From the IMG/VR virus record IMGVR_UViG_3300031673_000014, positions 17,146 to 81,145 of that record: DNA of 64,000 nucleotides, one strand, 5' to 3'. This document shows positions 5,684 to 51,867 of this stretch, piece by piece. Source of the DNA: a virus. Position 1 is the first letter of the stretch, and each line of letters begins with the position of its first letter. Position numbers and translations under genes: made by a program. The notes beneath the pieces are model-generated. The model saw nothing but the letters and a program-made list of their open reading frames with translations. It did not search any database and had not been told where the DNA came from.

Positions 5684-6741
5684 TAGCTACAAAAAGTGGC
5701 ACAAACATAATTTTAAAAATCTCAAATGCAGTATCTTTCGTATTATCTCGAAAGGTTAATACTGGATCGTGGGAAGACTGGGACGGCTCCTCATGGGGAG
5801 GCGTTCCCGTTTCTTTATCCATAACAAATTTTACAGATTACGATTTGTCAGATGGAATCTATCAGTATAGATATACAACAACAGAAATCGTTTATTCAAA
5901 CTGTATAGCCATAGGCTCTGATGCTGTTGGTTGGACTTTTGAAAACTATATAGTACCTGATGGTCAATTCGGTGAAATCCTGACTGCAGATGATGTTAAA
6001 TACTCATTTATGTGGGGACAGGCTTTTCTTGCTTCCAACGGTGATGTATGGAGTGATGCTCAGACTAGAACGATGATCAAGTGGGCTGTAAAACAATTAG
6101 AAAAGAAATTAAACATAGATATATTCCCACGTGAGTATTTCTGTGATGACATAACAAACGACGCTATAGATGAGTCAGAATACGTTAAAAAAGAATTTCC
6201 ATATCCTAACAGGAGAAAAAGGAAATACACTATTGTATCGCGACATAGGCCGGTCAGGGAAGTTACCCGGCTCGATATGTACGCTCCGACTGACGATAAA
6301 ATATTAAATCTTCTCCAGTGGTTAAGAATAGACCGAAGAAACGGGAAATTCAGAATATATCCAAGGCAGGGGAAAATACAGAGTTTTACTTCAAATTCCT
6401 ATCCATGGATGAGACTGCTCGATATGTATGATTATCCCGATGCTTTTCATATAGACTATACTACTGGCTACAAAACAGCCGATCTTATCCCGGATGATTT
6501 AAGGGATATAATTGGAAAGATAGCAACTCTTAAAATGTTAAATGTGATCGGTGACGGTTTATTAGCTGGTTTTTCTTCATCTTCACTGTCTTTAGACGGA
6601 ATGAGCGAATCTTTTAGTTCTACTCAGTCGGCAACGTCGGCCTATTATGGGGCAAGGCTGGCTGTGTATAAAAAAGAAGTGGAAGAATACATCGACGAAA
6701 ATAAAAACAAATACGGAAATTTCTTAATAGGTAGTTTCTAA
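5677..6741 (+). CDS. Head-tail adaptor (neck) protein
   Basis: IDYTTGY...IPDDL, S-SLDGMSES-S motifs typical of head-completion proteins; position. Confidence 0.65.
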   Translation: MLIATKSGTNIILKISNAVSFVLSRKVNTGSWEDWDGSSWGGVPVSLSITNFTDYDLSDGIYQYRYTTTEIVYSNCIAIGSDAVGWTFENYIVPDGQFGEILTADDVKYSFMWGQAFLASNGDVWSDAQTRTMIKWAVKQLEKKLNIDIFPREYFCDDITNDAIDESEYVKKEFPYPNRRKRKYTIVSRHRPVREVTRLDMYAPTDDKILNLLQWLRIDRRNGKFRIYPRQGKIQSFTSNSYPWMRLLDMYDYPDAFHIDYTTGYKTADLIPDDLRDIIGKIATLKMLNVIGDGLLAGFSSSSLSLDGMSESFSSTQSATSAYYGARLAVYKKEVEEYIDENKNKYGNFLIGSF

Positions 6742-23238: not shown

Positions 23239-23634
23239 TTATTTAAGTCTCCTGGTATCAAAGTTAATATATATTTTATCATACTGATCAAAGTACCCAT
23301 AACTCCTATCAATGTTATGGGTACAGAGATGCTGATACCCTATTTCCAATATCCATAGATTGATTCCTGCTGTTACATAATACTTTTCTTTATATGGTGA
23401 AAAATAAAATGATCTTGATTTTGTAATATCTACTTCTTGATTTACATCAACGAACAGAAACTTCCATGCTATGCCTATCCCTATATTTGTTGAAAAATAC
23501 ATGTTCTCATCATTTGTAAATCTATCCTCTTTCATAGGATAATAAGCAAACTCCCCAAATGAATAGAAACTAAAATCACTTGCATATAAATAACTGCTCA
23601 ATAATAACATCAATAAAACTATAATCTTTTTCAT
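23239..23634 (-). CDS. Secreted / outer-membrane beta-strand protein (moron)
   Basis: Signal peptide MKKIIVLLMLLLSSYLYA; alternating aromatic beta strands; own promoter and RBS. Confidence 0.65.
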   Translation of the reverse strand: MKKIIVLLMLLLSSYLYASDFSFYSFGEFAYYPMKEDRFTNDENMYFSTNIGIGIAWKFLFVDVNQEVDITKSRSFYFSPYKEKYYVTAGINLWILEIGYQHLCTHNIDRSYGYFDQYDKIYINFDTRRLK

Positions 23635-23652
23635 AAATTCCCCCTACTTTTA

Positions 23653-23680
23653 ATTATACATACGATTAGAATAAAAGCAA
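23653..23680 (-). promoter_or_regulatory. Promoter with CTAATCGNNTG motif
   Basis: Minus strand TTGCTT-16-TATAAT with CTAATCGTATG. Confidence 0.7.
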
Positions 23681-23691
23681 GGGAAATCGCT

Positions 23692-24117
23692 TTATTCCCC
23701 GATCATTCCTAATTTATCAAAAACAGATAGATCAGAAAGAGATAGAACAGCTTTTTCGTCTTTCATCTCTTTCATCAAAGCTTTGAACGTTTCTTTTTTC
23801 AGGACCGGGAAATCCAGTTTTACAGGAACCGGAGAATTCAGGAACAATTCAGTTTCAGTAAGGTTTGATTCTTGCTCGTCTGCAGAGTTATAACCACCGG
23901 GATTGAATTGTGTTATTCTTTTTTCTGCCATTTTTCCATACTTCAAAGCAATAGAATTTGATCCTTTTGTGAACAATTCATCAACTTTGACGAAATCCTG
24001 CTTTAATTTAGCAACCATGATAGATTCTTCCCAGTCCGGAAACCCTGGAAGTTCAAAAAGTTTTGTCATAGCAACTCTACTCTCTCTGAAATCTTTAAAA
24101 GTAAACTCTTCTTTCAT
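23692..24117 (-). CDS. Hypothetical protein
   Basis: 141 aa, GAGAGGA RBS. Confidence 0.65.
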   Translation of the reverse strand: MKEEFTFKDFRESRVAMTKLFELPGFPDWEESIMVAKLKQDFVKVDELFTKGSNSIALKYGKMAEKRITQFNPGGYNSADEQESNLTETELFLNSPVPVKLDFPVLKKETFKALMKEMKDEKAVLSLSDLSVFDKLGMIGE

Positions 24118-24169: not shown

Positions 24170-25666
24170 TTATACTTTCTTGGCTGTAAGAGTCAAGATG
24201 ATGTTTCTTGCAGTCTCCATTTCACTCATATTCATTTCTTTTAATTGACACTTCCGGCCAATAGCGACATATATCTTCATCCATAAGATATTCCTTCTCC
24301 GGAAACTTTCGGTATGGATTATTCTCTTTTTACCGTCCAGTTCCTTTACTGATTGCTCACCTACGTACCGATTGATCATTGCGTTAATTTCTTCACGGAA
24401 AGATTTTTCTTTCATTGACGGGGTAATATGAGCGTTTCCAGAGATTATCTCAAGTTCTGGTTTATGCTGTCCCGGGAGACCTTTTCCTCCGTCTTTTTTT
24501 TCTTTATATTCAAGAGCCCTGTCTTGTTCCCATATCCAATTCTTGAAAAAAGATATGAAGTCCGGATCTGCCGGTGCTGTGATATAAGCGAAGTCTTTGT
24601 ATGTTTTGAATCTTGTCGCTCGATTCAGGCATTGGATTAACCATGGCTCAGAGCGGTATATGTGCAGAATGATCATAAATGCTGTATTCGGGGCATCTAA
24701 TCCTTCTGAAGCTTGATTACAGCTACTTAAGACAGGGAATTCACCTTTTCTATAACTTTTTATTATACCAAGAGAATCTTTCATTTGAGAGTCAACGGAT
24801 TTACATTTACACCACTTATGATTTACATGTCTGGAATACTCTCTGGCTAGTTCAATGTCAGCTCCAACAATAATCATTTGAGCCCAAGGATTATTTCTTC
24901 TATATTCCATAAATTCAGACATTGCATTGTCTATTACTTGAAAAGCATAATCACTTCGAACGGCTGCATTAAGATGTTCTCTGTCCATAGAGTCATATTC
25001 AATAATCTTTTCACCTTTTTTATATTCCCCGGATCCGTCTATAAGATTTAATTTTACAGGAATAATGGCATCTTCTCTGAGGGCATCTTCCCGGGTATAT
25101 GTTACCCATCGTATATTTTTAGTTTCTGTTTTATCCAGCATATTATTTTTATATGGGAAAAATGAGATCTTATCCCCGGTGTGACGAAAGGCGGTCCCGG
25201 TCATAAAAACACAAAGTTTTGCTAATTTTACCAACTCAAGAAAAGGCTTCTCCCAGCTCCCATCACTGGAAACGTGATGATGTTCATCAGCAATAAGAAT
25301 ATAATTATATTTTTTGAAATCTTCTATTATATTGTCGGCATTACTGGCAATGGCTTGAAAAGTTATCCCGAATCCGTCTAATCCCCTTGATGGATCTTTT
25401 CCGTTATCCGCAACCCTTATTGTTTTCCCGGAATCAAAGAAAGGATCAATCATACTTTCTTCAATTTGGTATACTAACGATAACCGGGGCGCGACATGCA
25501 TAATTTTATCAAAGCCATTACCAATTAGATGTTTTGCAAATAGAATAGAATCTCCGCTTTTACCGGATCCCGGATGAGCATCTATAAATATTTTATTTAT
25601 TGGTTCACCTTCAATAATTTCGTTACATATAGAAATTACTTCAGATTGATGTTTTCTCCAAGCCAT
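24170..25666 (-). CDS. SF2 DEAD/DEAH-box helicase (ResIII-like)
   Basis: WRKHQ, HPGSGKS, IADEHHH, MTGTAFR, SEGLDAP, IQCLNRATR motifs. Confidence 0.9.
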   Translation of the reverse strand: MAWRKHQSEVISICNEIIEGEPINKIFIDAHPGSGKSGDSILFAKHLIGNGFDKIMHVAPRLSLVYQIEESMIDPFFDSGKTIRVADNGKDPSRGLDGFGITFQAIASNADNIIEDFKKYNYILIADEHHHVSSDGSWEKPFLELVKLAKLCVFMTGTAFRHTGDKISFFPYKNNMLDKTETKNIRWVTYTREDALREDAIIPVKLNLIDGSGEYKKGEKIIEYDSMDREHLNAAVRSDYAFQVIDNAMSEFMEYRRNNPWAQMIIVGADIELAREYSRHVNHKWCKCKSVDSQMKDSLGIIKSYRKGEFPVLSSCNQASEGLDAPNTAFMIILHIYRSEPWLIQCLNRATRFKTYKDFAYITAPADPDFISFFKNWIWEQDRALEYKEKKDGGKGLPGQHKPELEIISGNAHITPSMKEKSFREEINAMINRYVGEQSVKELDGKKRIIHTESFRRRNILWMKIYVAIGRKCQLKEMNMSEMETARNIILTLTAKKV

Positions 25667-25750
25667 TATTTATTATCCTTTCTGCAAAATAATACGCGAT
25701 GATCATAATCTTGCACCGTTAAATAAGATAGGTCGAAATCCTGTCCGATC

Positions 25751-26374
25751 TTATTTATTCTCTTTAATATATTTCTTCCTGAAATTATCTATGTTCTGCA
25801 TTGTCATAACTGCTTGAGGGTAGTTTCTACTCTCGGAGACGTTTGTTCTAAGAGTCAATAATCCAAGATTTAAAGATTTTTGAGAGGGTATATTTTTCCC
25901 GGTCAACAACCCATTATCTCTCATAATGTCAAATATTTCTGTTTGGCTTAACCCTAAATGTTTGCCAGCATCACGAATAGAATAATGTTTTGATTCATCT
26001 CTCAGGGCAGCATCAGCAAGTGCAGCTTTTGGTTTTAGAATTGCATTTTCTTCCTCTAGTTTCTTATACCTCTGAATAGCGAGCTCATAACCTTTTACGA
26101 TCATCAAAGCTTCTTCTGCCTGTGTTGTTGGCAACTTCCTACGATCATCGGAAGTGATTAAAGAACTATTTTCCTTAATTCTCATTGAAACTGCCGTTAC
26201 TTCATATTCGTTCAAATAAGTAATCTTACCATTCTTAACTTTATCAGGAAAAATCTCATTAACCCTTTTTATTACAAGGGCATAACTTACTCCTAATGAA
26301 TCTGCAACTTCTTTTATGGTCATTGTTTTTTCTGGAAAATCTTCTTGTGGAAATAATGCAAGATCTCTGTTCAT
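25751..26374 (-). CDS. Antirepressor with KilAC domain
   Basis: N-term HTH MTIKEVADSLG; LKPKAALAD...SIRDAGKHLG...C-term; start corrected to ATG after AAGGAG. Confidence 0.8.
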   Translation of the reverse strand: MNRDLALFPQEDFPEKTMTIKEVADSLGVSYALVIKRVNEIFPDKVKNGKITYLNEYEVTAVSMRIKENSSLITSDDRRKLPTTQAEEALMIVKGYELAIQRYKKLEEENAILKPKAALADAALRDESKHYSIRDAGKHLGLSQTEIFDIMRDNGLLTGKNIPSQKSLNLGLLTLRTNVSESRNYPQAVMTMQNIDNFRKKYIKENK

Positions 26375-26544
26375 AAAAAACTCCTTAAGTCTTCCTGTAG
26401 CGACCACTAAAAAGCTAGTTCGGAAAACTTTATAGGGCAGGAAGACTTAAGGAGTCTTTCAAATCCCAAACTAATATAACTCTCCGCTAAAAGAGCAGAT
26501 CAACGATCTTCCATAATAATACAGACATTAAAGAACATTGTCAA
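26375..26544 (-). promoter_or_regulatory. Antirepressor promoter and attenuator leader
   Basis: TTGACA-17-TATTAT (26544-26516); 18-bp perfect inverted repeat 26380-26397/26438-26455 that includes the SD and is followed by T6. Confidence 0.75.
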
Positions 26545-26606
26545 ACAATATAAAATAAACTAGACATACGATTATTATTGTGCTACTGTTTAGTTCAGGG
26601 GGATAT

Positions 26607-27765: not shown

Positions 27766-28020
27766 ATGAAAATATCTATAGAAATGGAAATACCGGACAA
27801 TGTTTTAAAAGGAATGTTCGGTGTTGCGGATGTGAACATAAAAATGGTTGAAGACATGGTAAGAATATCTTTTTATCAAGAGGTTGCCTCTAAACATGGC
27901 GATATTGATAGTGTATTGGATTGGATTGCATCGGATGATGTTTCAGAAGTTGAAAGAAGATTCCGTAAAAACCTTATTGAAATGACAAGAAAGTTCAATC
28001 AAAAGAGGAAATCTAAATGA
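27766..28020 (+). CDS. Hypothetical protein
   Basis: CAGGGGGAAT RBS before ATG 27766; ATGA overlap. Confidence 0.55.
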   Translation: MKISIEMEIPDNVLKGMFGVADVNIKMVEDMVRISFYQEVASKHGDIDSVLDWIASDDVSEVERRFRKNLIEMTRKFNQKRKSK

Positions 28021-31000
28021 AAACAGCGCATATAGCAGACTTACACCATAGTCCAGAGAGACATAAAAAAGTAATGAGAATCTTGGATCAGGTTATTGAG
28101 ATCCTTCCAGATGTTGATTTATTGACAAATTCCGGTGAGAATTTCAATAATCCTTACAATATTGGAGAGGTTTACAATCAGCTGCTTGATAAGTGGGGAG
28201 AGGCTACAGCGATTAAACCGGTGGCTACAATAGATGCTACTCAAGGAAAGCACGAACGGGAAGGAATGCTAAGAGGTCTCAAAAGTGCTGGTATAGTTAT
28301 TATAAAGCCCGGAATGGCTTATGGGTATGGAGCAGGACAGATCTATCCTAAAATTGATGGGCTTGAGCCAGAAATGCTATTATTCGGCGTTCCTCATGCT
28401 CATAAGGGAAAAATCGTGATGGGTGAAATGTCCAGAGATGAAGCCAATGCTAAAGTAAATCAGGAAATGGCAAAACTGTATTCTTTTTATGGTGCATTGA
28501 GAGCGAATAATCCCGATATACCAGCCCTTGCCGTTGGTCATGGAGTCGTACAGGGTAAGAATACCAGAGATTTACATGCTATTAAGAACAGTTCTATTTA
28601 TTCAACTGAAGCTGAATTAAAACAAATGGGCTGTGATTTTTACGCATGGGGACATTATCATGTCCCTACAGAGTTTGAATTAATCAAGGGCGGTTATCTC
28701 GGTTCGTTTGCCTGGGATTGGAACGAATTGAACTATAAACCGGCAATTACTATCATGGACTGGGATACAATGGAAGTTACCAGACATGAGCTTGATATCA
28801 ATACAAGAAAAAAACTTGTTATGTTTCCAGGGGATAAAATACCAGACCTGACCGGTTGTGATGTTCATTTGATCAATAATGAAACTGAATGGACTGAATC
28901 TGACTGCAGAGATGCCGGAGCCGGACAGATAAAAATAACAACAGAGGTTGAACTTGAAAACAAGATAAGATCTCAGGCAGTAGTCGAAGCCGTTTCTTAT
29001 CCGGAAAAATTCAAAGCGGTTTATCCCGATGCAACCGATAGGCAATTACAGGTTTGTGATGAAATGTGGGAAGCTGACAAAGCAGAGGGTAAGATACCCG
29101 AAGAAAAGGTCATAACTCCTCTATACCTGACTGTCCATGGATCAAAGAACTTCCTAGAAAGAATAGGCAGGGAAACAATAAAGATTGATTTTAGAGACCA
29201 TGACGGCCTTGTAATGCTTATCGGTGACGGTGGACTCGGAAAGACAACGTTGTTTGATTATGCTAATCCGTTTCCGCTGCTTTTCGCTCAGGGGAATTCA
29301 TTACTTTCTACTTTCGAGATGGAAGATTCTTTTATTGAGCAGGGATGGGATATAAACGGGGAAGTTTTTATTATAAAGAAATTTTTCAAACCTACTTTAA
29401 AAAGTCCTAAAGCCGAATATTATGCTTTTAAAGAAAATGGCGAAAAGATATCCGGTCTGGATTCTGGGAATGTTGGACCGTATAGTGATTGGTGTCTGTC
29501 TATGTTTGGATCTCCCCGAAGATATTCTTCTTCTGTTTTCAATACTCAGTTTGACGACAATCCTGCGACATTCTCAGGGCAAAAGATAAATCCTTCCATA
29601 TTTCAGGCAAATAATATTGAGTTAAAATCATTATTTCATGAGCTGGCAGGAACAGATTTGAAACATCTTGAGCTGCAATGTAAAGCAAAAGCCGACGAAT
29701 TCAAAGATATGGCTGAGAATGAGCTTATGAAAAAGTCCGGTGTAGAAGAAAGTATTCCCGATACTGCGGTATTTATGGAAAGGATGTCAGAAATAAATCA
29801 CGAAATTGCTGATAAGAGTATTGTGTTAGGGGCAATAGACAGTGAAATATTATCCTGCAAAGTAAAAATCAAAGATATAGAGAAGATTGAAGAGGGAAAT
29901 AGAGACATTGATACAACAGTCTTTATTCTTAACGGACAGATTGGTACGGAAACTGCGAACAGGAATACCCTTAACCATGAGCTGTCAGGGCTTAATAATG
30001 TCGACATTGATACTGTTACCAAGGTTTTAGAAAAGATGGATTCTGACAAGGTTATATACGATTCTCGCTTAAAAGAACTTCCAGAGATCAAAAGACATAA
30101 TGTTGATATTCAACAAACATTTATGAAAGCTCTTGAAAATTGGAATACTGATAACCTGGGAATTGTAGAGCATAACAACAGTGTTTCATCTATTAAAAAA
30201 GAGATTGAAACTGCCATGTTGAATAAAACAAGGGCAATTACAAGAAAAAAAGATAAACAGGTCAGAGCTGAACAGGATCAAAAAAACCAGAACATAAACA
30301 TTGAAAATGAATATGGAAGACTTAAGGTAGGGATTGAACAATCCATATCCACTTTGAATGAACAGATCAAAACCGGAAAGGAAATGGTTGAAAATATCGT
30401 TGCCTGTCCTAAGTGTGGATATCAGGATGAAGATTCTCTCAAAAAGAAGTCTGACTATGAAGCAAGAATAAAGCTGAGAGAGACCGAACTTGATGGTAAA
30501 GTGAAAGAACTTCTTGAATTGGTAGAGCCGGAAAAAGTAACCGTAAAGGCTGATTGTTCGGAAGAAGATAAAGAAATTGTCGAATATGATGAGATAATCA
30601 ATCAGGTAGTACCAGAGATAAAGCCAGTCCCCGATAAACCGATTGAACCGGTTTACTTGAATGAAGATCTCCCGGTGTTTGATTTTGACAAATATTCTTC
30701 TTTGAAAGACCAGATTTCTTCTTATTCTGAATCAAAAATAACAGAACTGCAGACAAGAATTTCAGAGTGTACAAAGAGAATAGCTGATTTACAGAATCAA
30801 AAAGAGTCTAAAATAAAGACCGAAATTGATTATTCTCCTGTTGATCAATTGAAGGCTGCCGAAGAAAAACTGAAAACTATTGAAAAAGAGATCCAACAAT
30901 TAAACAATGAGATTTCTTTAAAAGAGTCTAAGATATCTGATATCAATAAGATGAGAGAATCACTTGTTGAATACGACAACCGGATAGAGAAGTATAATGA

Positions 31001-31505
31001 GGAATTTACTTTCTGGGCTGATATGAAAGAGAAATGGGGTCCTAAAGGGATACCGGCCAGAATACTTGAGCATACAGGACCTTATGTTGATCAGGAGGCG
31101 AACAGGATACTCGCGAAATATTACCCATTGTATAAAGTTCACTCAGAGACTACAAAAATGTCCAGTGATGGTAAAAAAGAGCTGGAAGTGTTTAATATCT
31201 CAGTAGTGAATCAAGAGACTACCAGAACAAAGCCGTTGAACTGTATAAGTGGAGAAGAGAGAAACTTCATTAATGAGGCTCTACGGTATGCTTTCAGGAA
31301 AGTAAACGAACAGAATTCACTTGTCCGGTATAATGTTATGTTTGAGGACGAGCCCGACTCACATGTTTCTAGTGCTCAATTACATACGTTTTGGGATTTA
31401 TTAACCGATATATCAGAAGATCGATTATCTTTTTGTATATCTCATTCTCCGGAAGTGAAACATAGATCAGCGACAACAATAGATATAATAGATTTGGAGG
31501 GGTAA
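28017..31505 (+). CDS. Mre11/SbcD nuclease - Rad50/SbcC ATPase fusion
   Basis: HIADLHH and WGHYH phosphoesterase motifs; Walker A GDGGLGKTT; coiled coil with CPKC hook; ISGEE signature, MFEDEPD Walker B, ISH H-loop. Confidence 0.9.
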   Translation: MKTAHIADLHHSPERHKKVMRILDQVIEILPDVDLLTNSGENFNNPYNIGEVYNQLLDKWGEATAIKPVATIDATQGKHEREGMLRGLKSAGIVIIKPGMAYGYGAGQIYPKIDGLEPEMLLFGVPHAHKGKIVMGEMSRDEANAKVNQEMAKLYSFYGALRANNPDIPALAVGHGVVQGKNTRDLHAIKNSSIYSTEAELKQMGCDFYAWGHYHVPTEFELIKGGYLGSFAWDWNELNYKPAITIMDWDTMEVTRHELDINTRKKLVMFPGDKIPDLTGCDVHLINNETEWTESDCRDAGAGQIKITTEVELENKIRSQAVVEAVSYPEKFKAVYPDATDRQLQVCDEMWEADKAEGKIPEEKVITPLYLTVHGSKNFLERIGRETIKIDFRDHDGLVMLIGDGGLGKTTLFDYANPFPLLFAQGNSLLSTFEMEDSFIEQGWDINGEVFIIKKFFKPTLKSPKAEYYAFKENGEKISGLDSGNVGPYSDWCLSMFGSPRRYSSSVFNTQFDDNPATFSGQKINPSIFQANNIELKSLFHELAGTDLKHLELQCKAKADEFKDMAENELMKKSGVEESIPDTAVFMERMSEINHEIADKSIVLGAIDSEILSCKVKIKDIEKIEEGNRDIDTTVFILNGQIGTETANRNTLNHELSGLNNVDIDTVTKVLEKMDSDKVIYDSRLKELPEIKRHNVDIQQTFMKALENWNTDNLGIVEHNNSVSSIKKEIETAMLNKTRAITRKKDKQVRAEQDQKNQNINIENEYGRLKVGIEQSISTLNEQIKTGKEMVENIVACPKCGYQDEDSLKKKSDYEARIKLRETELDGKVKELLELVEPEKVTVKADCSEEDKEIVEYDEIINQVVPEIKPVPDKPIEPVYLNEDLPVFDFDKYSSLKDQISSYSESKITELQTRISECTKRIADLQNQKESKIKTEIDYSPVDQLKAAEEKLKTIEKEIQQLNNEISLKESKISDINKMRESLVEYDNRIEKYNEEFTFWADMKEKWGPKGIPARILEHTGPYVDQEANRILAKYYPLYKVHSETTKMSSDGKKELEVFNISVVNQETTRTKPLNCISGEERNFINEALRYAFRKVNEQNSLVRYNVMFEDEPDSHVSSAQLHTFWDLLTDISEDRLSFCISHSPEVKHRSATTIDIIDLEG

Positions 31506-34700: not shown

Positions 34701-35414
34701 ATGGATATAAAGAAATTAGTAGATGATCAGACAACAAAATTTATAGAGTCTGGCGAATTGGAAAAATTGATCACTGAGAATGTGCAGAAGTCTATAGAAA
34801 AGGTAATTACCGAAAAATTTGGAGGATATTCTTTTCAGAGAGATTTAGAAAAAAAACTATCTGAAGAAATTGAGCCGTTACTAGGAGAAATCTCTTTTTC
34901 CGGATATAGAAATGTGATTATTGACAGGATAAAAGCTATTCTTACCGGCCTTGTAGATTCTGAATTGGTTGAAAAAGTGGAGGAAGCATATAAAGATATT
35001 TTTATCTCTTCTTCAGAGCCATTAAAGATGTCAGATTTTTTCAAAATAGTTCGAGATTGCTATCTTGATGAAGACGGACAATCTTACGGGGAATTTTTTA
35101 AAATAGAAATTTCTGATGACGAAGGCTCAGATCCCACCTTTAGACATATAGAAATTTCATTTTCGGAAGATGAAGGCGACTGTCGATGCACAAACAGCTT
35201 TAGAATGATGTCTTATAAACAGGAATTATTCACTATCTACTCTTTAAAAACAGAGCATTTATCTTATGAGAAAGATTCTAAGACATTATTAAAAGTGAAA
35301 TATCTTGATAAATTCGAAAGAATTCTTTTGAATGCTTATATAAACGATCAGAAAATAATCTTTGATATTGAAGAGGATGATATTGATCGATCAAAATTTG
35401 AAGGTGACTATTAA
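34701..35414 (+). CDS. Hypothetical protein
   Basis: 237 aa, CAGGGGGAAA RBS. Confidence 0.65.
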   Translation: MDIKKLVDDQTTKFIESGELEKLITENVQKSIEKVITEKFGGYSFQRDLEKKLSEEIEPLLGEISFSGYRNVIIDRIKAILTGLVDSELVEKVEEAYKDIFISSSEPLKMSDFFKIVRDCYLDEDGQSYGEFFKIEISDDEGSDPTFRHIEISFSEDEGDCRCTNSFRMMSYKQELFTIYSLKTEHLSYEKDSKTLLKVKYLDKFERILLNAYINDQKIIFDIEEDDIDRSKFEGDY

Positions 35415-36163
35415 TGGGAGCGGCTTTTAATACTGCAAAAAACAAGTATTTTGATAAAACAAAGAATCATACAATCTTTACACCGCCAACGGTCTGTAAT
35501 TGGTTATATGAAATATTGCAACCGGAACTGGAAGATGTTAAGACTGTATTTGACCCGGCCTGTGGCTCAGGTAATCTACTGATGCCGTTTAAACAAAATC
35601 CTGATATTGTAACAATGGGATGTGATATCGAAGATTTTGGAGCAGATATAGATCATTTGTTCAAAGACGATTTCCTGACATGGAAAGGGGAATTCCCGGA
35701 AATTGACTTATGTATGATTAATCCGCCGTTTAATCATACCCCGGAGTCCCGGAAGAAATGGGGAAAAACGAATCTTCTCCCGGAGCTATTTATTCAAAAA
35801 TGCTTTGATTTATTCGGGAAAGATGTAAAAGCGGTTTTGTTTACTCCAATGGGGTTTAGGTTGAATACTAGATGTTATACTGAGAAGCAGGGCAGCCGAT
35901 ACCGGAATATAAGAGATAATATGGGGAAAATTACTTCTATAGTCTCTATTCCTCTTGATATGTTTCCAAATCCTGATTTTGATGAAAGACTTCCAGAGCA
36001 GAGGAAAAATCCAAGGTTAAAAATTCCGAACTCCAATATCAAGCGAAAAGAGATTCAACAGGAAATAATTTTCTTTAATATGCCGAAGCTGGATCCTCAT
36101 TATTGTCTTCCGGATTCAGTCATTGAAGACCTGAGAGAGATGGACCGGGAGACCTGGGGATGA
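35414..36163 (+). CDS. N6-adenine DNA methyltransferase
   Basis: IFTP, FDPACGSG, MINPPF motifs. Confidence 0.85.
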   Translation: MGAAFNTAKNKYFDKTKNHTIFTPPTVCNWLYEILQPELEDVKTVFDPACGSGNLLMPFKQNPDIVTMGCDIEDFGADIDHLFKDDFLTWKGEFPEIDLCMINPPFNHTPESRKKWGKTNLLPELFIQKCFDLFGKDVKAVLFTPMGFRLNTRCYTEKQGSRYRNIRDNMGKITSIVSIPLDMFPNPDFDERLPEQRKNPRLKIPNSNIKRKEIQQEIIFFNMPKLDPHYCLPDSVIEDLREMDRETWG

Positions 36164-37626: not shown

Positions 37627-38333
37627 TGGCCGAGCGTAGAATGTTTGCAAAGACAATAATAGATTCTGATATATTTCTTGATATGCCTCAGACAACACAA
37701 AATCTATATTTCCATTTGAATATGAGAGCTGATGATGAGGGGTTTGTCAACTCTCCTAAAAAGATTATGAGAATGGTCGGGTCTAATCAAAACGATTTAG
37801 AAATATTATTGGCGAAACGTTATTTAATAGCGTTTGAATCCGGTGTAATCGTAATTAAACACTTTAAATTACATAATACAATCAGAAAAGACAGGATGAA
37901 GGAAACTCTTTATCTTGAGGAAAAATCAAAATTAAGAGAGAAAGTAAATGGGTCGTATACAGAGGTTCAACCAGATGACAACCAAATGTCAACCAAGTGT
38001 ACTCCTAGTGTATTAGATTGTAGTATAGTTAAGTCTAGTATAGATGAGATTAATACGGCAGAGCCGAAATCTAAAAAACCTACAAAAGAGATAAAAAATA
38101 AACATGGTGAATATGGAAGAGTTTTTTTAACTGAAAAACAATTTGATAAGTTAGTAGTAGATTATGGAGAGTCTAAAGCAAAAGGCATGATTGAAAACAT
38201 TGATACATATTTTCAAGAACACCAGAGTAAAATTAAAAACTTTTCAGATCACAACTTGACAATGCGGAAATGGGCCGGTGCTCCTGCAGAAAAACAGAAA
38301 GACGGTGAAAAAGAGGATCTCATATGGAATTAA
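37626..38333 (+). CDS. Replisome organizer / replication initiator
   Basis: MAERRMFAKTIIDSDIFLDMP...LYFHLNMRADDEGF N-terminus. Confidence 0.85.
   Translation: MAERRMFAKTIIDSDIFLDMPQTTQNLYFHLNMRADDEGFVNSPKKIMRMVGSNQNDLEILLAKRYLIAFESGVIVIKHFKLHNTIRKDRMKETLYLEEKSKLREKVNGSYTEVQPDDNQMSTKCTPSVLDCSIVKSSIDEINTAEPKSKKPTKEIKNKHGEYGRVFLTEKQFDKLVVDYGESKAKGMIENIDTYFQEHQSKIKNFSDHNLTMRKWAGAPAEKQKDGEKEDLIWN
37967..38046. repeat. Putative replication origin iterons inside initiator gene
   Basis: Three 11-bp units tcaaccagatg/acaaccaaatg/tcaaccaagtg followed by an AT-rich tract of TAG-containing repeats. Confidence 0.6.
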
Positions 38334-39016
38334 AAACAATAACGCTATTAAACGGAAAAGAGATCCAACTGAATCAGGCTTTCAATATGGATTGCCTTCA
38401 GTTTATGAAAATGCTTCCTGACAAATGTATTGATTTAGTTTTGACTGATCCTCCTTATGGGATTGGTGCTGATAAGGGTGTTGGAGGTGGTTCAAAGCGT
38501 GGAGATGTTAAAAAGTTTTCAGGAGATTGGGATTCAAAAATACCAGAAAAAGAACTATTTGAACAGATATTCCGGATATCAAAAAATCAAATAATTTGGG
38601 GTGGTAACTATTTTACGGAATATTTAAAACCAACATCATCATGGATAATATGGGATAAGAGAGAAGGACTTCCGGAAAGAACATTTGCAGATTGTGAGAT
38701 GGCTTGGAATAGCATCAAAAGCCCTGCAAGAATATTTCGCCACAAGTGGGACGGTATGATTCAAGAGAACATGAAAGACAAAGATATTAGAATACATCCA
38801 ACTCAAAAACCTGTAAAACTTTTTAAATGGTGTATAGAAAAATATGTAACAAATGAGAAAATAATATTTGATCCATTTTTAGGATCTTTTTCTTCTTCTA
38901 TTGCATGTAATTCTTACGGGTTAAATTGGTTAGGTTGTGAATTATCGGAGGAGTTTTATACGTCAGGCTATCACCGATACGAACAAGAAACAAAGCAGAT
39001 GTTAATGGAGTTTTAA
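38324..39016 (+). CDS. Beta-class DNA methyltransferase (N6A/N4C)
   Basis: LTDPPYG, IIWGGNYF, HPTQKP, FDPFLGS motifs. Confidence 0.9.
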   Translation: MELKTITLLNGKEIQLNQAFNMDCLQFMKMLPDKCIDLVLTDPPYGIGADKGVGGGSKRGDVKKFSGDWDSKIPEKELFEQIFRISKNQIIWGGNYFTEYLKPTSSWIIWDKREGLPERTFADCEMAWNSIKSPARIFRHKWDGMIQENMKDKDIRIHPTQKPVKLFKWCIEKYVTNEKIIFDPFLGSFSSSIACNSYGLNWLGCELSEEFYTSGYHRYEQETKQMLMEF

Positions 39017-41960: not shown

Positions 41961-42212
41961 ATGACTGTAGAAGATTTAATTGAACAGCTCAAGGTTTCAC
42001 TTGAAATGGGAGTTATTGATAAAAACGATATTGTTTCTATAACTACAAATACTGGAAAAGGCTGGAATACGGAATTTGTTAGATCAATAACAGCTCCGAC
42101 TATGAGATATCCAGCTCCTAAAGAACAGAGAGCAATACATCAAATATCTTTTGTAAAGTTTATAGAAATAGAAGACGAGAAAAACCAGATAAAAATGAAT
42201 TTTTTAATTTGA
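41961..42212 (+). CDS. Hypothetical protein
   Basis: MTVEDLIEQLK typical small phage protein start. Confidence 0.55.
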   Translation: MTVEDLIEQLKVSLEMGVIDKNDIVSITTNTGKGWNTEFVRSITAPTMRYPAPKEQRAIHQISFVKFIEIEDEKNQIKMNFLI

Positions 42213-42237
42213 TTAATAACAGAATAAGAGTTATTAT
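42209..42237 (+). promoter_or_regulatory. Promoter driving the large non-coding unit
   Basis: TTGATT-17-TATTAT. Confidence 0.6.
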
Positions 42238-42243
42238 TTTAAT

Positions 42244-42842
42244 ATCGGGGGATATGAGAAAATTCCCCTTTAAATCTTTTCCGTATGGAGAAGAAAATTA
42301 TACCTAATTAAAAGTATCTAAAAATTAGGTCCCGATTTTATAGCAATGTAGTAGTAGTGGTAGGATCGAAAAGGAGGGAACTACCTGTAGGTTAAAGTAT
42401 CGATGAAAAGATTCTGCCGTGGAACTGTCAAAGGTTTTCGGCGGTAAATTAACGTAGATGGTTAAGGCTATCCGTTTATGTTATACTGAAATAAATGCAA
42501 TTCGATTTTACAGGTCTTATTGTGTTTTAACGATCTTGCCCGTATGGGCTGATCTAAACAAGGGATAGTAACTGGTCCCGAAAACAATTGATTATATTTT
42601 CCCTCACACGAGGGGTTCTTCGGGGACGGTCAAGGGTCCCCGGAGATAAATACTTGTGTTAATGTTGATAGTGTTGCAAGTGCTAATGTTGATCAAGTAG
42701 AGACTGAAATCAGGCAGTCTTTAAAGAAATCTGTGATACCACGGGAGGTAAAAGATAAATCCCTATACCAGCGGAAAAGCTGTGATTTCCTAAAAGTCCA
42801 GGTTGTTTGAGATATTTCAACTGTAAAAGAAATACTCGTCAA
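42244..42842 (+). ncRNA. Candidate large structured ncRNA (~600 nt, ROOL/GOLLD-like)
   Basis: No plus-strand ORF of 60 aa or more; more than 10 hairpins plus long-range helices; flanked by promoter and tRNA-like element. Confidence 0.65.
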
Positions 42843-42915
42843 TGGGAGCTGGTGAAATATGGGATCACGGCAATACAAGTTATGGCAATATGCGGTTCAA
42901 GTCCGTGGCTTCCAA
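42843..42915 (+). tRNA. tRNA-like cloverleaf with non-canonical anticodon loop (pseudo-tRNA)
   Basis: TGGGAGC/GCTTCCA acceptor, GTGA/TCAC D-stem, TGCGG-TTCAAGT-CCGTG T-arm; loop ACAAGTT lacks U33 and purine 37. Confidence 0.75.
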
Positions 42916-43013
42916 TTGCCTCGCATGAGGTAAAACATAAAAGAAATATTAAGAAGTGTTTTGAATTAGAACAAACAGGTTTCTGACGGTTTCTTATTAT
43001 GTAATTCTCCTTA

Positions 43014-43058
43014 GCCGGATCGATGAAGAGGCACTTCGGTGATCCGGCGTTTTTATTT
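43014..43058 (+). terminator. Intrinsic terminator closing ncRNA unit
   Basis: GCCGGATC...GATCCGGC followed by GTTTTTATTT. Confidence 0.75.
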
Positions 43059-43075
43059 CCAGAATCGGGGGATCT

Positions 43076-51226: not shown

Positions 51227-51385
51227 ATGATAAAAGGCAATATAAAGATAAATCAAGAGGTAGCCAACCGGATCCGTGATGAATATTATATCCCTGGGGT
51301 CACAGCAAAAAGTTTGGCTGAAAAGTATGGTGTATGTATATCTACCATTTCAAATATAATAACTTTTAAAACGTGGAGAGGATAA
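51227..51385 (+). CDS. Small HTH protein (52 aa), missed by ORF track
   Basis: IRDEY...TAKSLAEKYGVCISTISNII..KTW, like the DNA-binding tail of HNH endonucleases; TAATG coupling to dUTPase. Confidence 0.65.
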   Translation: MIKGNIKINQEVANRIRDEYYIPGVTAKSLAEKYGVCISTISNIITFKTWRG

Positions 51386-51867
51386 TGAGATATAATTTTA
51401 CAAAAGAGACCGAAACGGCAAAACTACCAACCAGACATACTCAGGTATCTGCAGGAGTAGATTTTTATTCTGATGAAACCGTCGCTATCCCGGCAAACGG
51501 TAGGGCGGTAATATCAACTGGAATTTCATGGAATCCCTCATTTAATTCAAAAGAATCTTTTAGTTTTCCTTTTTCATGCTTTGTATCATTAATCATACAA
51601 TCCCGGTCAGGGCTTGCCTTTAAAGAAAATATTGAATGCTCAAATGCCGGAGTTATTGATCAGGATTATGTTTCTACTGCCGAAAACAAAGCTGTAATCA
51701 ACGTTATGATGCATAATCACAATAGTGAACCGCGACATATTTACAAGGGAATGAAGATCGCTCAGGGAGTCCCTAATTTAATACCGTATTTTGAAGATGT
51801 GGAGAATTTGGATGTTACCCGGGATGGTTTGGGGTTTGGAAGTTCGGATGAAAAGGAAAACAAATGA
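51385..51867 (+). CDS. dut: dUTPase (trimeric)
   Basis: SAGVDF, SRSGLA, NAGVIDQDY, KIAQ, RDGLGFGSS: all five motifs. Confidence 0.92.
   Translation: MRYNFTKETETAKLPTRHTQVSAGVDFYSDETVAIPANGRAVISTGISWNPSFNSKESFSFPFSCFVSLIIQSRSGLAFKENIECSNAGVIDQDYVSTAENKAVINVMMHNHNSEPRHIYKGMKIAQGVPNLIPYFEDVENLDVTRDGLGFGSSDEKENK

Follow-up and report, generated by a model that had tools for sequence, protein, structure and literature searches.

Phage tRNA islands are already known as sources of unexplained RNAs, such as RNAC and RNAD of T4, ROOL and GOLLD. RNAC and RNAD are processed together with the T4 tRNAs. Both are small RNAs of unknown role transcribed from the tRNA region of this phage (PMC3014915). ROOL, with a length of ~580-600 nt, is found in a phage context adjoining tRNA islands and its function is unknown (PMC5737381; 10.1101/2024.12.08.627333). 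GOLLD is likewise found in phages, displays a variable 5′ half, and can harbour tRNAs in its linker (10.1101/2024.12.08.627333).

The locus compared here with these systems lies in the window, by which we mean the whole 64,000-nt stretch of DNA that was analysed, which spans positions 17146-81145 of an IMG/VR virus record 81 kb in length, with an estimated completeness of 92%. The genes of the window include those for a major head protein, a tail sheath, a portal and a large terminase, which points to a myovirus. The nearest isolated phage, as judged by the terminase, is Brevibacillus phage Emery with an identity of only 34%, indicating that the lineage is uncultured. The sequencing runs containing the stretch were soil and sediment metagenomes, with no RNA run among those listed.

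A preliminary description, made from the letters of the DNA, had singled out a gene-free gap of ~860 bases, and this gap is real. Every one of the six frames of 42209-43075 is interrupted by 13-20 stops, with all three stop codons represented. Consequently, no single stop reassignment would open a frame, and protein coding under other genetic codes was ruled out. When ORFs from 60 aa upwards are counted on either strand, no ORF-free stretch of the window is longer than 42213-42692, which lies inside the gap. The ORFs overlapping the rest of the gap (61 aa on the minus strand, 59 aa on the plus strand and 101 aa on the minus strand) run over a tRNA-like element and a terminator, and no equivalent was present in the homologous stretch of the metagenome contig L013. 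Among 17 nearby ORFs, Pfam revealed nothing related to RNA; the matches were AntA, two DNA methylases, a dUTPase and, weakly and below the cut-off, DUF7336. The genes for N6_Mtase (35414-36163), N6_N4_Mtase (38324-39016), the dUTPase (51373-51867) and a 1162-aa SbcC-like protein (28017-31505) belong to the same plus-strand block. The sole minus-strand gene cluster of the window (24170-26407; 498 aa and 218 aa) coincides with a local reversal of GC skew and is flanked by the ORF-poor regions 23239-23902 and 25052-26579. The features of the locus are as follows.

42209-42237, plus strand: promoter-like TTGATT-17-TATTAT with 9/12 matches; a possible start of the non-coding unit, as a weak lead
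42247-42268, plus strand: hairpin GGGGGAU/AUUCCCC, then UUUAAAUCUUUU (pair probability 0.73)
42275-42294, plus strand: 8-bp hairpin with the cap C(GUAU)G
42302-42330, plus strand: 8-bp hairpin ACCUAAUU/AAUUAGGU (probability 0.93)
42333-42380, plus strand: hairpin and motif AAUGUAGUAGUAG..GUAGGA..GAAAAGGAGG
42383-42699, plus strand: module X, about nine successive local hairpins with A-rich linkers (z -4.5, centroid)
42413-42443, plus strand: hairpin H, a 6-8 bp stem with the invariant 14-nt loop AACUGUCAAAGGUU (covariation in four copies)
42700-42842, plus strand: module E, a conserved leader of ~145 nt directly 5′ of the tRNA-like element (compensatory changes)
42844-42914, plus strand: tRNA-like element (start G42844 set by homology; cloverleaf MFE)
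42916-42933, plus strand: hairpin CCUC-GCAU-GAGG directly 3′ of the tRNA-like element, conserved in the metagenome contigs L013 and L015
42935-43003, plus strand: tail hairpin of the 3′ trailer (z -3.9 for the whole trailer)
43014-43058, plus strand: intrinsic terminator, stem GCCGGAUCG..CGAUCCGGC (43014-43048) followed by UUUUUAUUU

Concerning the ends of this unit, the site TTGATT-17-TATTAT that had been proposed to bound the gap does exist, but it is not evidence of a promoter, as seven such matches were found against 7.6 in shuffles. The terminator proposed for the other end was confirmed, with the stem and the following UUUUUAUUU both present; a simple scan did not report it. The hairpin at 42247-42268 is either the terminator of the upstream gene or the 5′-terminal hairpin of the RNA. 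An exact 10-nt direct repeat, ATCGGGGGAT, occurs at 42244-42253 and 43064-43073 and thereby brackets an 820-nt non-coding unit. Its second copy is the Shine-Dalgarno (SD) region of the next gene, and the repeat overlaps SD-like GGGGG sites. It may be a target-site duplication, a footprint of insertion or recombination, or a product of chance (by a rough estimate, ~0.4 such repeats are expected).

Known RNA families did not account for the locus. Rfam 15 gave no match at the gathering score in the whole window, and at E≤10 only chance-level matches were found in three slices, including slices of 1.4 kb and 0.6 kb. The models without a match included ROOL, GOLLD, group I and II introns, RNase P and tmRNA, as well as HEARO and raiA. 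The suggestion in the preliminary description that the locus encodes a divergent ROOL or GOLLD member was thus not borne out, even at E≤10. On the other hand, its proposal of a structured plus-strand non-coding RNA next to a tRNA-like element, outside the described Rfam families, agrees with both the lack of an Rfam match and the folding results below.

The plus strand of 42240-42842 was predicted to fold with -176.6 kcal/mol (z -5.0), as compared with -131.7 kcal/mol (z -2.6) for the minus strand, and is thus more stable than its shuffled counterparts, a check that had been named beforehand. In terms of GC-corrected stability, the gap ranked first among 160 windows of 600 nt (-3.7 SD). The local helices pointed out previously are all present in the sequence and appear in the MFE or centroid structure with pair probabilities of 0.8-1.0. 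Many G-U pairs on the plus strand were also found in the predicted hairpins by direct reading of the helix list, and the linkers in 42383-42699 are A-rich, again as had been claimed. The long-range helix 42383/42508, by contrast, can be found in the sequence but is absent from the MFE structure and is contradicted by natural variants: its 5′ side is skipped in one Logan contig of run X4, and its 3′ side carries a deletion in a Logan contig of run X2. A second long-range pairing, 42428-41/42578-91, is broken by changes in the contig X7. In the MFE structure, the molecule is closed by helices of probability 0.2-0.65 that join the 5′ region to module E, which occurs in relatives without the 5′ partner of these helices. 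The centroid of 42383-42699 is a succession of nine hairpins, and a supported multistem junction is absent. The leader thus looks like a string of local hairpins in these predictions, rather than one ornate fold of ~600 nt.

The contig X7 provided a view of how the hairpins vary. It matches 42423-42650 with 12 differing bases and five gaps over 228 nt and then diverges. All four stem substitutions listed (42479, 42497, 42575 and 42620) replace a G.U pair of the plus strand by G-C or A-U, and the other changes listed all fall in linkers, which supports conserved RNA hairpins on the plus strand. A tandem pair, GTGTTAATGTTGAT and GTGCTAATGTTGAT, 24 nt apart at 42656-42693, provides the opposing arms of a long, imperfect hairpin, in place of which X7 carries other sequence. 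Further upstream, the cap CCGUAUGG of the hairpin at 42275-42294 is repeated at 42538-42549, in the metagenome contig L015 and in one Logan contig. The motif AAUGUAGUAGUAG..GUAGGA..GAAAAGGAGG is also common to L015, where it lies 5′ of a tRNA-like element. A perfect SD-like AAGGAGG is conserved at 42370-42377 and at 6451-6458 of the oriented L015, with no ORF or start codon at a usable distance.

Relatives of the locus proved to be few. Flanking proteins used as synteny anchors led to no relatives, and blastn against phage GenBank records gave no match. A search with the major head protein identified one related IMG/VR phage, G001, with 85% identity. The corresponding gap in G001 is ~400 nt long and has only hairpin H (loop AACUGUCAAAGGUU) and a block of 40 nt in common with the window, the block being situated directly 5′ of a tRNA-like element. 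Scanning with the pattern of this block yielded G001 and one chance match among viral contigs, and four true and nine chance loci in metagenomes, with L013, L015 and L024 as the true relatives. Two patterns from the 5′ region found nothing in contig scans. In viral and GTDB genome contigs, only chance matches were obtained with the module E core and, G001 excepted, with a 16-mer of hairpin H. The scarcity of matches beyond chance, apart from G001, shows that the family is rare. The homologue set amounts to 4-5 members from about three lineages, and the covariation statistics given below are accordingly weak.

The homology of L013, L015 and L024 is limited to module E (42700-42842) and the tRNA-like element or trailer. 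In L015, module E is flanked by two tRNA-like elements; in L013, it is preceded by a 43-bit tRNA (#1); and in L024, a further copy of the AACUGUCAAAGGUU hairpin, a GC-rich hairpin and a canonical class II tRNA-Ser (GCU; L024:1263-1346, 63.7 bits) lie 3′ of it. Given these tRNAs and tRNA-like elements next to module E in the relatives, the locus is a tRNA or tRNA-like island with structured spacers. Module X occupies the position at which L015 has a tRNA-like element, and Logan contigs were the only source of its pieces. In one X4 contig, 42231-42286, 42404-42449, 42488-42529 and the sequence from 42804 onward are joined, with 42287-42403, 42450-42487 and 42530-42803 skipped. Other X4 contigs run into different GGGUA... 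elements after 42841/42842, and one X2 contig carries 188 other bases in place of the tRNA-like element. The relatives, comprising one IMG/VR phage, three metagenome contigs and the Logan contigs, thus contain different subsets of the modules, and none of them holds the whole unit.

Two helices of module E display compensatory changes, with a covariation score reached by 1 of 500 shuffles. Its 3′ end is the 40-nt block (42803-42842), GTTTGAGATATTTCAACTGTAAAAGAAATACTC(G/A)TCAA, identical to that of G001 at 39 of 40 positions and largely common to L013, L015 and L024. The hairpin of the block, UAUUUC-AACUGUAAAA-GAAAUA, overlaps a promoter-like TTGAGA-18-AATACT. This terminal hairpin of module E is nearly invariant, and the helix has no compensatory support. 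Taking into account its near-invariance and the overlap with the promoter-like site, it may function at the DNA level, at the RNA level or at both. Module E is present as a single copy in G000 and as a partial copy in G001, and the model R1 detected no second copy in either. Its helix P1 (AGACUG/CAGUCU vs AGUGC/GCACU) appears compensatory by eye only, the MAFFT alignment being out of register there, and would make a pseudoknot with helix 20-24/40-44.

Across four copies of hairpin H, five of the eight stem pairs are changed on both sides, and the covariation score was reached by none of 500 shuffles. A small ORF across this hairpin (42403-42447, 14 codons) was considered and rejected, as it is not conserved in G001. 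Related loops are found at 42626-42636 (ACGGUCAAGGG) and, read directly in the sequence, inside the 40-nt block (AACUGUAAAAG) and at the anticodon position of one L015 element (GACUGUCAAGAA). The loops AACUGUCAAAGGUU, AACUGUAAAAG, ACGGUCAAGGG and GACUGUCAAGAA have the same sense and none is palindromic, which argues for a common sequence-specific ligand over loop-loop pairing. On the minus strand, the loop of hairpin H reads TTGACA; a conserved -10 element behind it was not seen in the copies compared.

The tRNA-like element next to the structured RNA, also noted in the preliminary description, was recognized by ARAGORN as a 73-nt gene (42843-42915, 'Leu aag'). Read in the register given by homology, the element comprises an acceptor stem of 7 bp containing G3.U70, the discriminator A73, a D arm and the T loop UUCAAGU. 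The G3.U70 register needs a T stem of 4 bp, and the ARAGORN register places the wobble at G4.U69. The acceptor and T-arm half of a tRNA is thus present, with its 7 bp of paired acceptor stem, its discriminator base and a T stem capped by a loop of the form UUCRANY. The anticodon loop, ACAAGUU, has C33 and U37 on a stem with a mismatch and differs from the canonical loop with U33 and a purine at position 37 on a 5-bp stem. Against the Rfam tRNA model (RF00005, threshold 29 bits), no match was obtained at E≤10, even in a search of 121 nt. The best Rfam match of the element was mascRNA, with an insignificant 13.7 bits (E 1.8).

A comparison of six elements indicated that the acceptor and T stems covary and stay paired, and that the anticodon arms are degenerate, replaced or expanded, with insertions or no stem in the relatives. 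G1-C72, G2-C71, G3.U70 and A73 are found in G001, L015 #1, L015 #2 and, in the homology register, the window element. These are the identity marks by which AlaRS recognizes tRNA-Ala and tmRNA. Five elements are located 3′ of the block or of the sequence corresponding to it in L015, and G3.U70 and A73 occur together in four of them; the exception, L013 #2, has G3-C70. An encoded CCA is absent from all block-linked tRNA-like elements. The element of G001 (L003:1549-1651) scores 48 bits on the Rfam tRNA model, has G3.U70 and A73, and contains an extra ~26-33 nt in the anticodon arm, which represents a short insert resembling an intron or else an extended arm without decoding capacity. Removal of 26 nt after loop position 37 would leave the 7-nt loop AUAGCAA, with the Ala anticodon AGC, on a stem of 6 bp. 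The two elements of L015 (1324-1398 and 1565-1662, minus strand) show similarity to the Rfam tmRNA model at its two ends only (28.3 and 19.2 bits against a gathering threshold of 47), and in one of them the anticodon arm is replaced by the motif GACUGUCAAGAA. Neither an ARAGORN call of a tmRNA nor a tag reading frame was found. The window element and its relatives resemble the tRNA-like domain of tmRNA and tRNA-Ala minihelices in their acceptor stem, which in most of them has G3.U70 and A73, their T arm and the lack of an anticodon arm, but differ from tmRNA in having no mRNA-like domain or tag frame.

We then weighed other explanations of these data. According to the preliminary description, the leader would be one ornate RNA of ~600 nt. 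A single large RNA of a new class, similar to ROOL or GOLLD, whose leader would fold and perhaps multimerise as a whole, with or without the tRNA-like element and with hairpins varying at the periphery, would fit well with the locus being the most stable region of the window and with the adjoining tRNA-like element in a phage, as is the case for ROOL and GOLLD (PMC5737381; 10.1101/2024.12.08.627333). ROOL and GOLLD are found in phages or prophages near tRNA genes, and here too we have a myovirus record, an adjoining tRNA-like element and relatives located in islands. The locus shares with ROOL the length of the leader, and with GOLLD a size of ~800 nt including a tRNA and a variable 5′ part, which GOLLD tolerates. 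The many hairpins with conserved caps could, in addition, provide tertiary or bridging contacts. Against such an RNA, there is no Rfam match at E≤10, the centroid lacks a multistem junction, the long-range helices are of low probability and involve pairing with module E, those examined in variants are broken or missing, and relatives share modules and not the 600-nt unit. Unlike ROOL, the 5′ 460 nt are without supported multistem junctions or pseudoknots, and unlike GOLLD, only a trailer of ~140 nt with the terminator follows the tRNA-like element, with no large conserved 3′ domain. We therefore consider one large RNA quite improbable, and a very strong folding energy beside a tRNA insufficient for calling a giant RNA of the ROOL/GOLLD kind. 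Nevertheless, the variable 5′ half and linker tRNAs of GOLLD mean that modularity alone is compatible with a large functional assembly (10.1101/2024.12.08.627333).

The locus might also act mainly as DNA, with the block representing a promoter, a palindromic operator and a cassette-swap junction, and the other hairpins being terminators or protein-binding DNA. The near-identity of the block in G001 (39/40) between flanks that both differ is the pattern of a recombination boundary, the block holds TTGAGA-18-AATACT together with the inverted repeat TATTTC-N10-GAAATA, and the TTGACA on the minus strand of the hairpin H loop could be read in the same way. What makes us doubt this explanation strongly is that folding is strand-asymmetric (see the energies above), that many G.U pairs of the hairpins would turn into A.C mismatches in the complementary strand or in cruciforms of the duplex, and that variants change G.U to Watson-Crick pairs. 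Moreover, the stems of hairpin H covary, and the minus-strand TTGACA is not followed by a conserved -10. A further explanation, functionless remnants of a decaying tRNA array in which the tRNA-like elements are pseudogenes and the spacers neutral, would account for the degenerate or interrupted anticodon arms, the failure of the window element against the Rfam tRNA model, and the rarity and hypervariability of the region. Decay is nonetheless difficult to reconcile with acceptor and T stems that are fully paired via compensatory changes across elements, with spacer hairpins kept by structure-preserving substitutions, and with the highest folding stability of the window, and we give it little credence.

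We favour, with a probability of roughly 0.55, the interpretation that the locus is a plus-strand stable-RNA operon of a hypervariable tRNA island, consisting of a hairpin leader, module E, a non-decoding element at which RNase P would cut and which AlaRS may charge, and a terminator-bearing trailer. Absence of coding, plus-strand folding, conservation and covariation of modules, and mosaicism are shown directly by the data. The closest documented parallel would be RNAC and RNAD of T4, which are also non-coding RNAs from a phage tRNA region (PMC3014915), a likeness by genomic logic alone. Unlike the T4 locus, the leader of ~600 nt is much longer, the linked element is non-decoding, and the host and phage lineage are unrelated.

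In the stable-RNA operon, the island of this uncultured soil and sediment myovirus would be transcribed from the plus strand up to the terminator at 43014-43058. The ~600-nt leader would consist of hairpin modules, each folding on its own, that related phages gain, lose and exchange, with a structured module of ~145 nt immediately 5′ of an element keeping only the acceptor/T-arm half of a tRNA, and a short structured trailer would close the transcript. RNase P probably cuts at 42843/42844, separating the leader from the tRNA-like RNA, which would then gain CCA. The arrangement recalls mascRNA at the 3′ end of the eukaryotic MALAT1, where a tRNA-like element 3′ of a long non-coding RNA directs cleavage by RNase P; the similarity is one of mechanism, without homology, and for our locus cleavage is inferred. 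As it carries G3.U70 and A73, the tRNA-like RNA may be charged by AlaRS despite the lack of decoding. The hairpins with the loops AACUGUCAAAGGUU and AACUGUAAAAG could all be bound by a single factor with sequence specificity, most probably a protein.

A bolder, unlikely reading is that the block-linked tRNA-like RNAs constitute a new class of non-decoding acceptor mimics of alanine identity, encoded by phages and produced together with the conserved pseudoknot-capable leader and loop hairpins for a dedicated partner. They would then form an undescribed phage system acting on host tRNA processing, charging, trans-translation or tRNA-targeting defence. What is new here, outside all Rfam models, is the leader motif with compensatory changes, the covarying hairpin with a 14-nt loop, and the alanine-marked, non-decoding tRNA look-alikes. 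Should such look-alikes undergo processing and charging, they would point to a way in which phages exploit the acceptor half of tRNA beyond translation.
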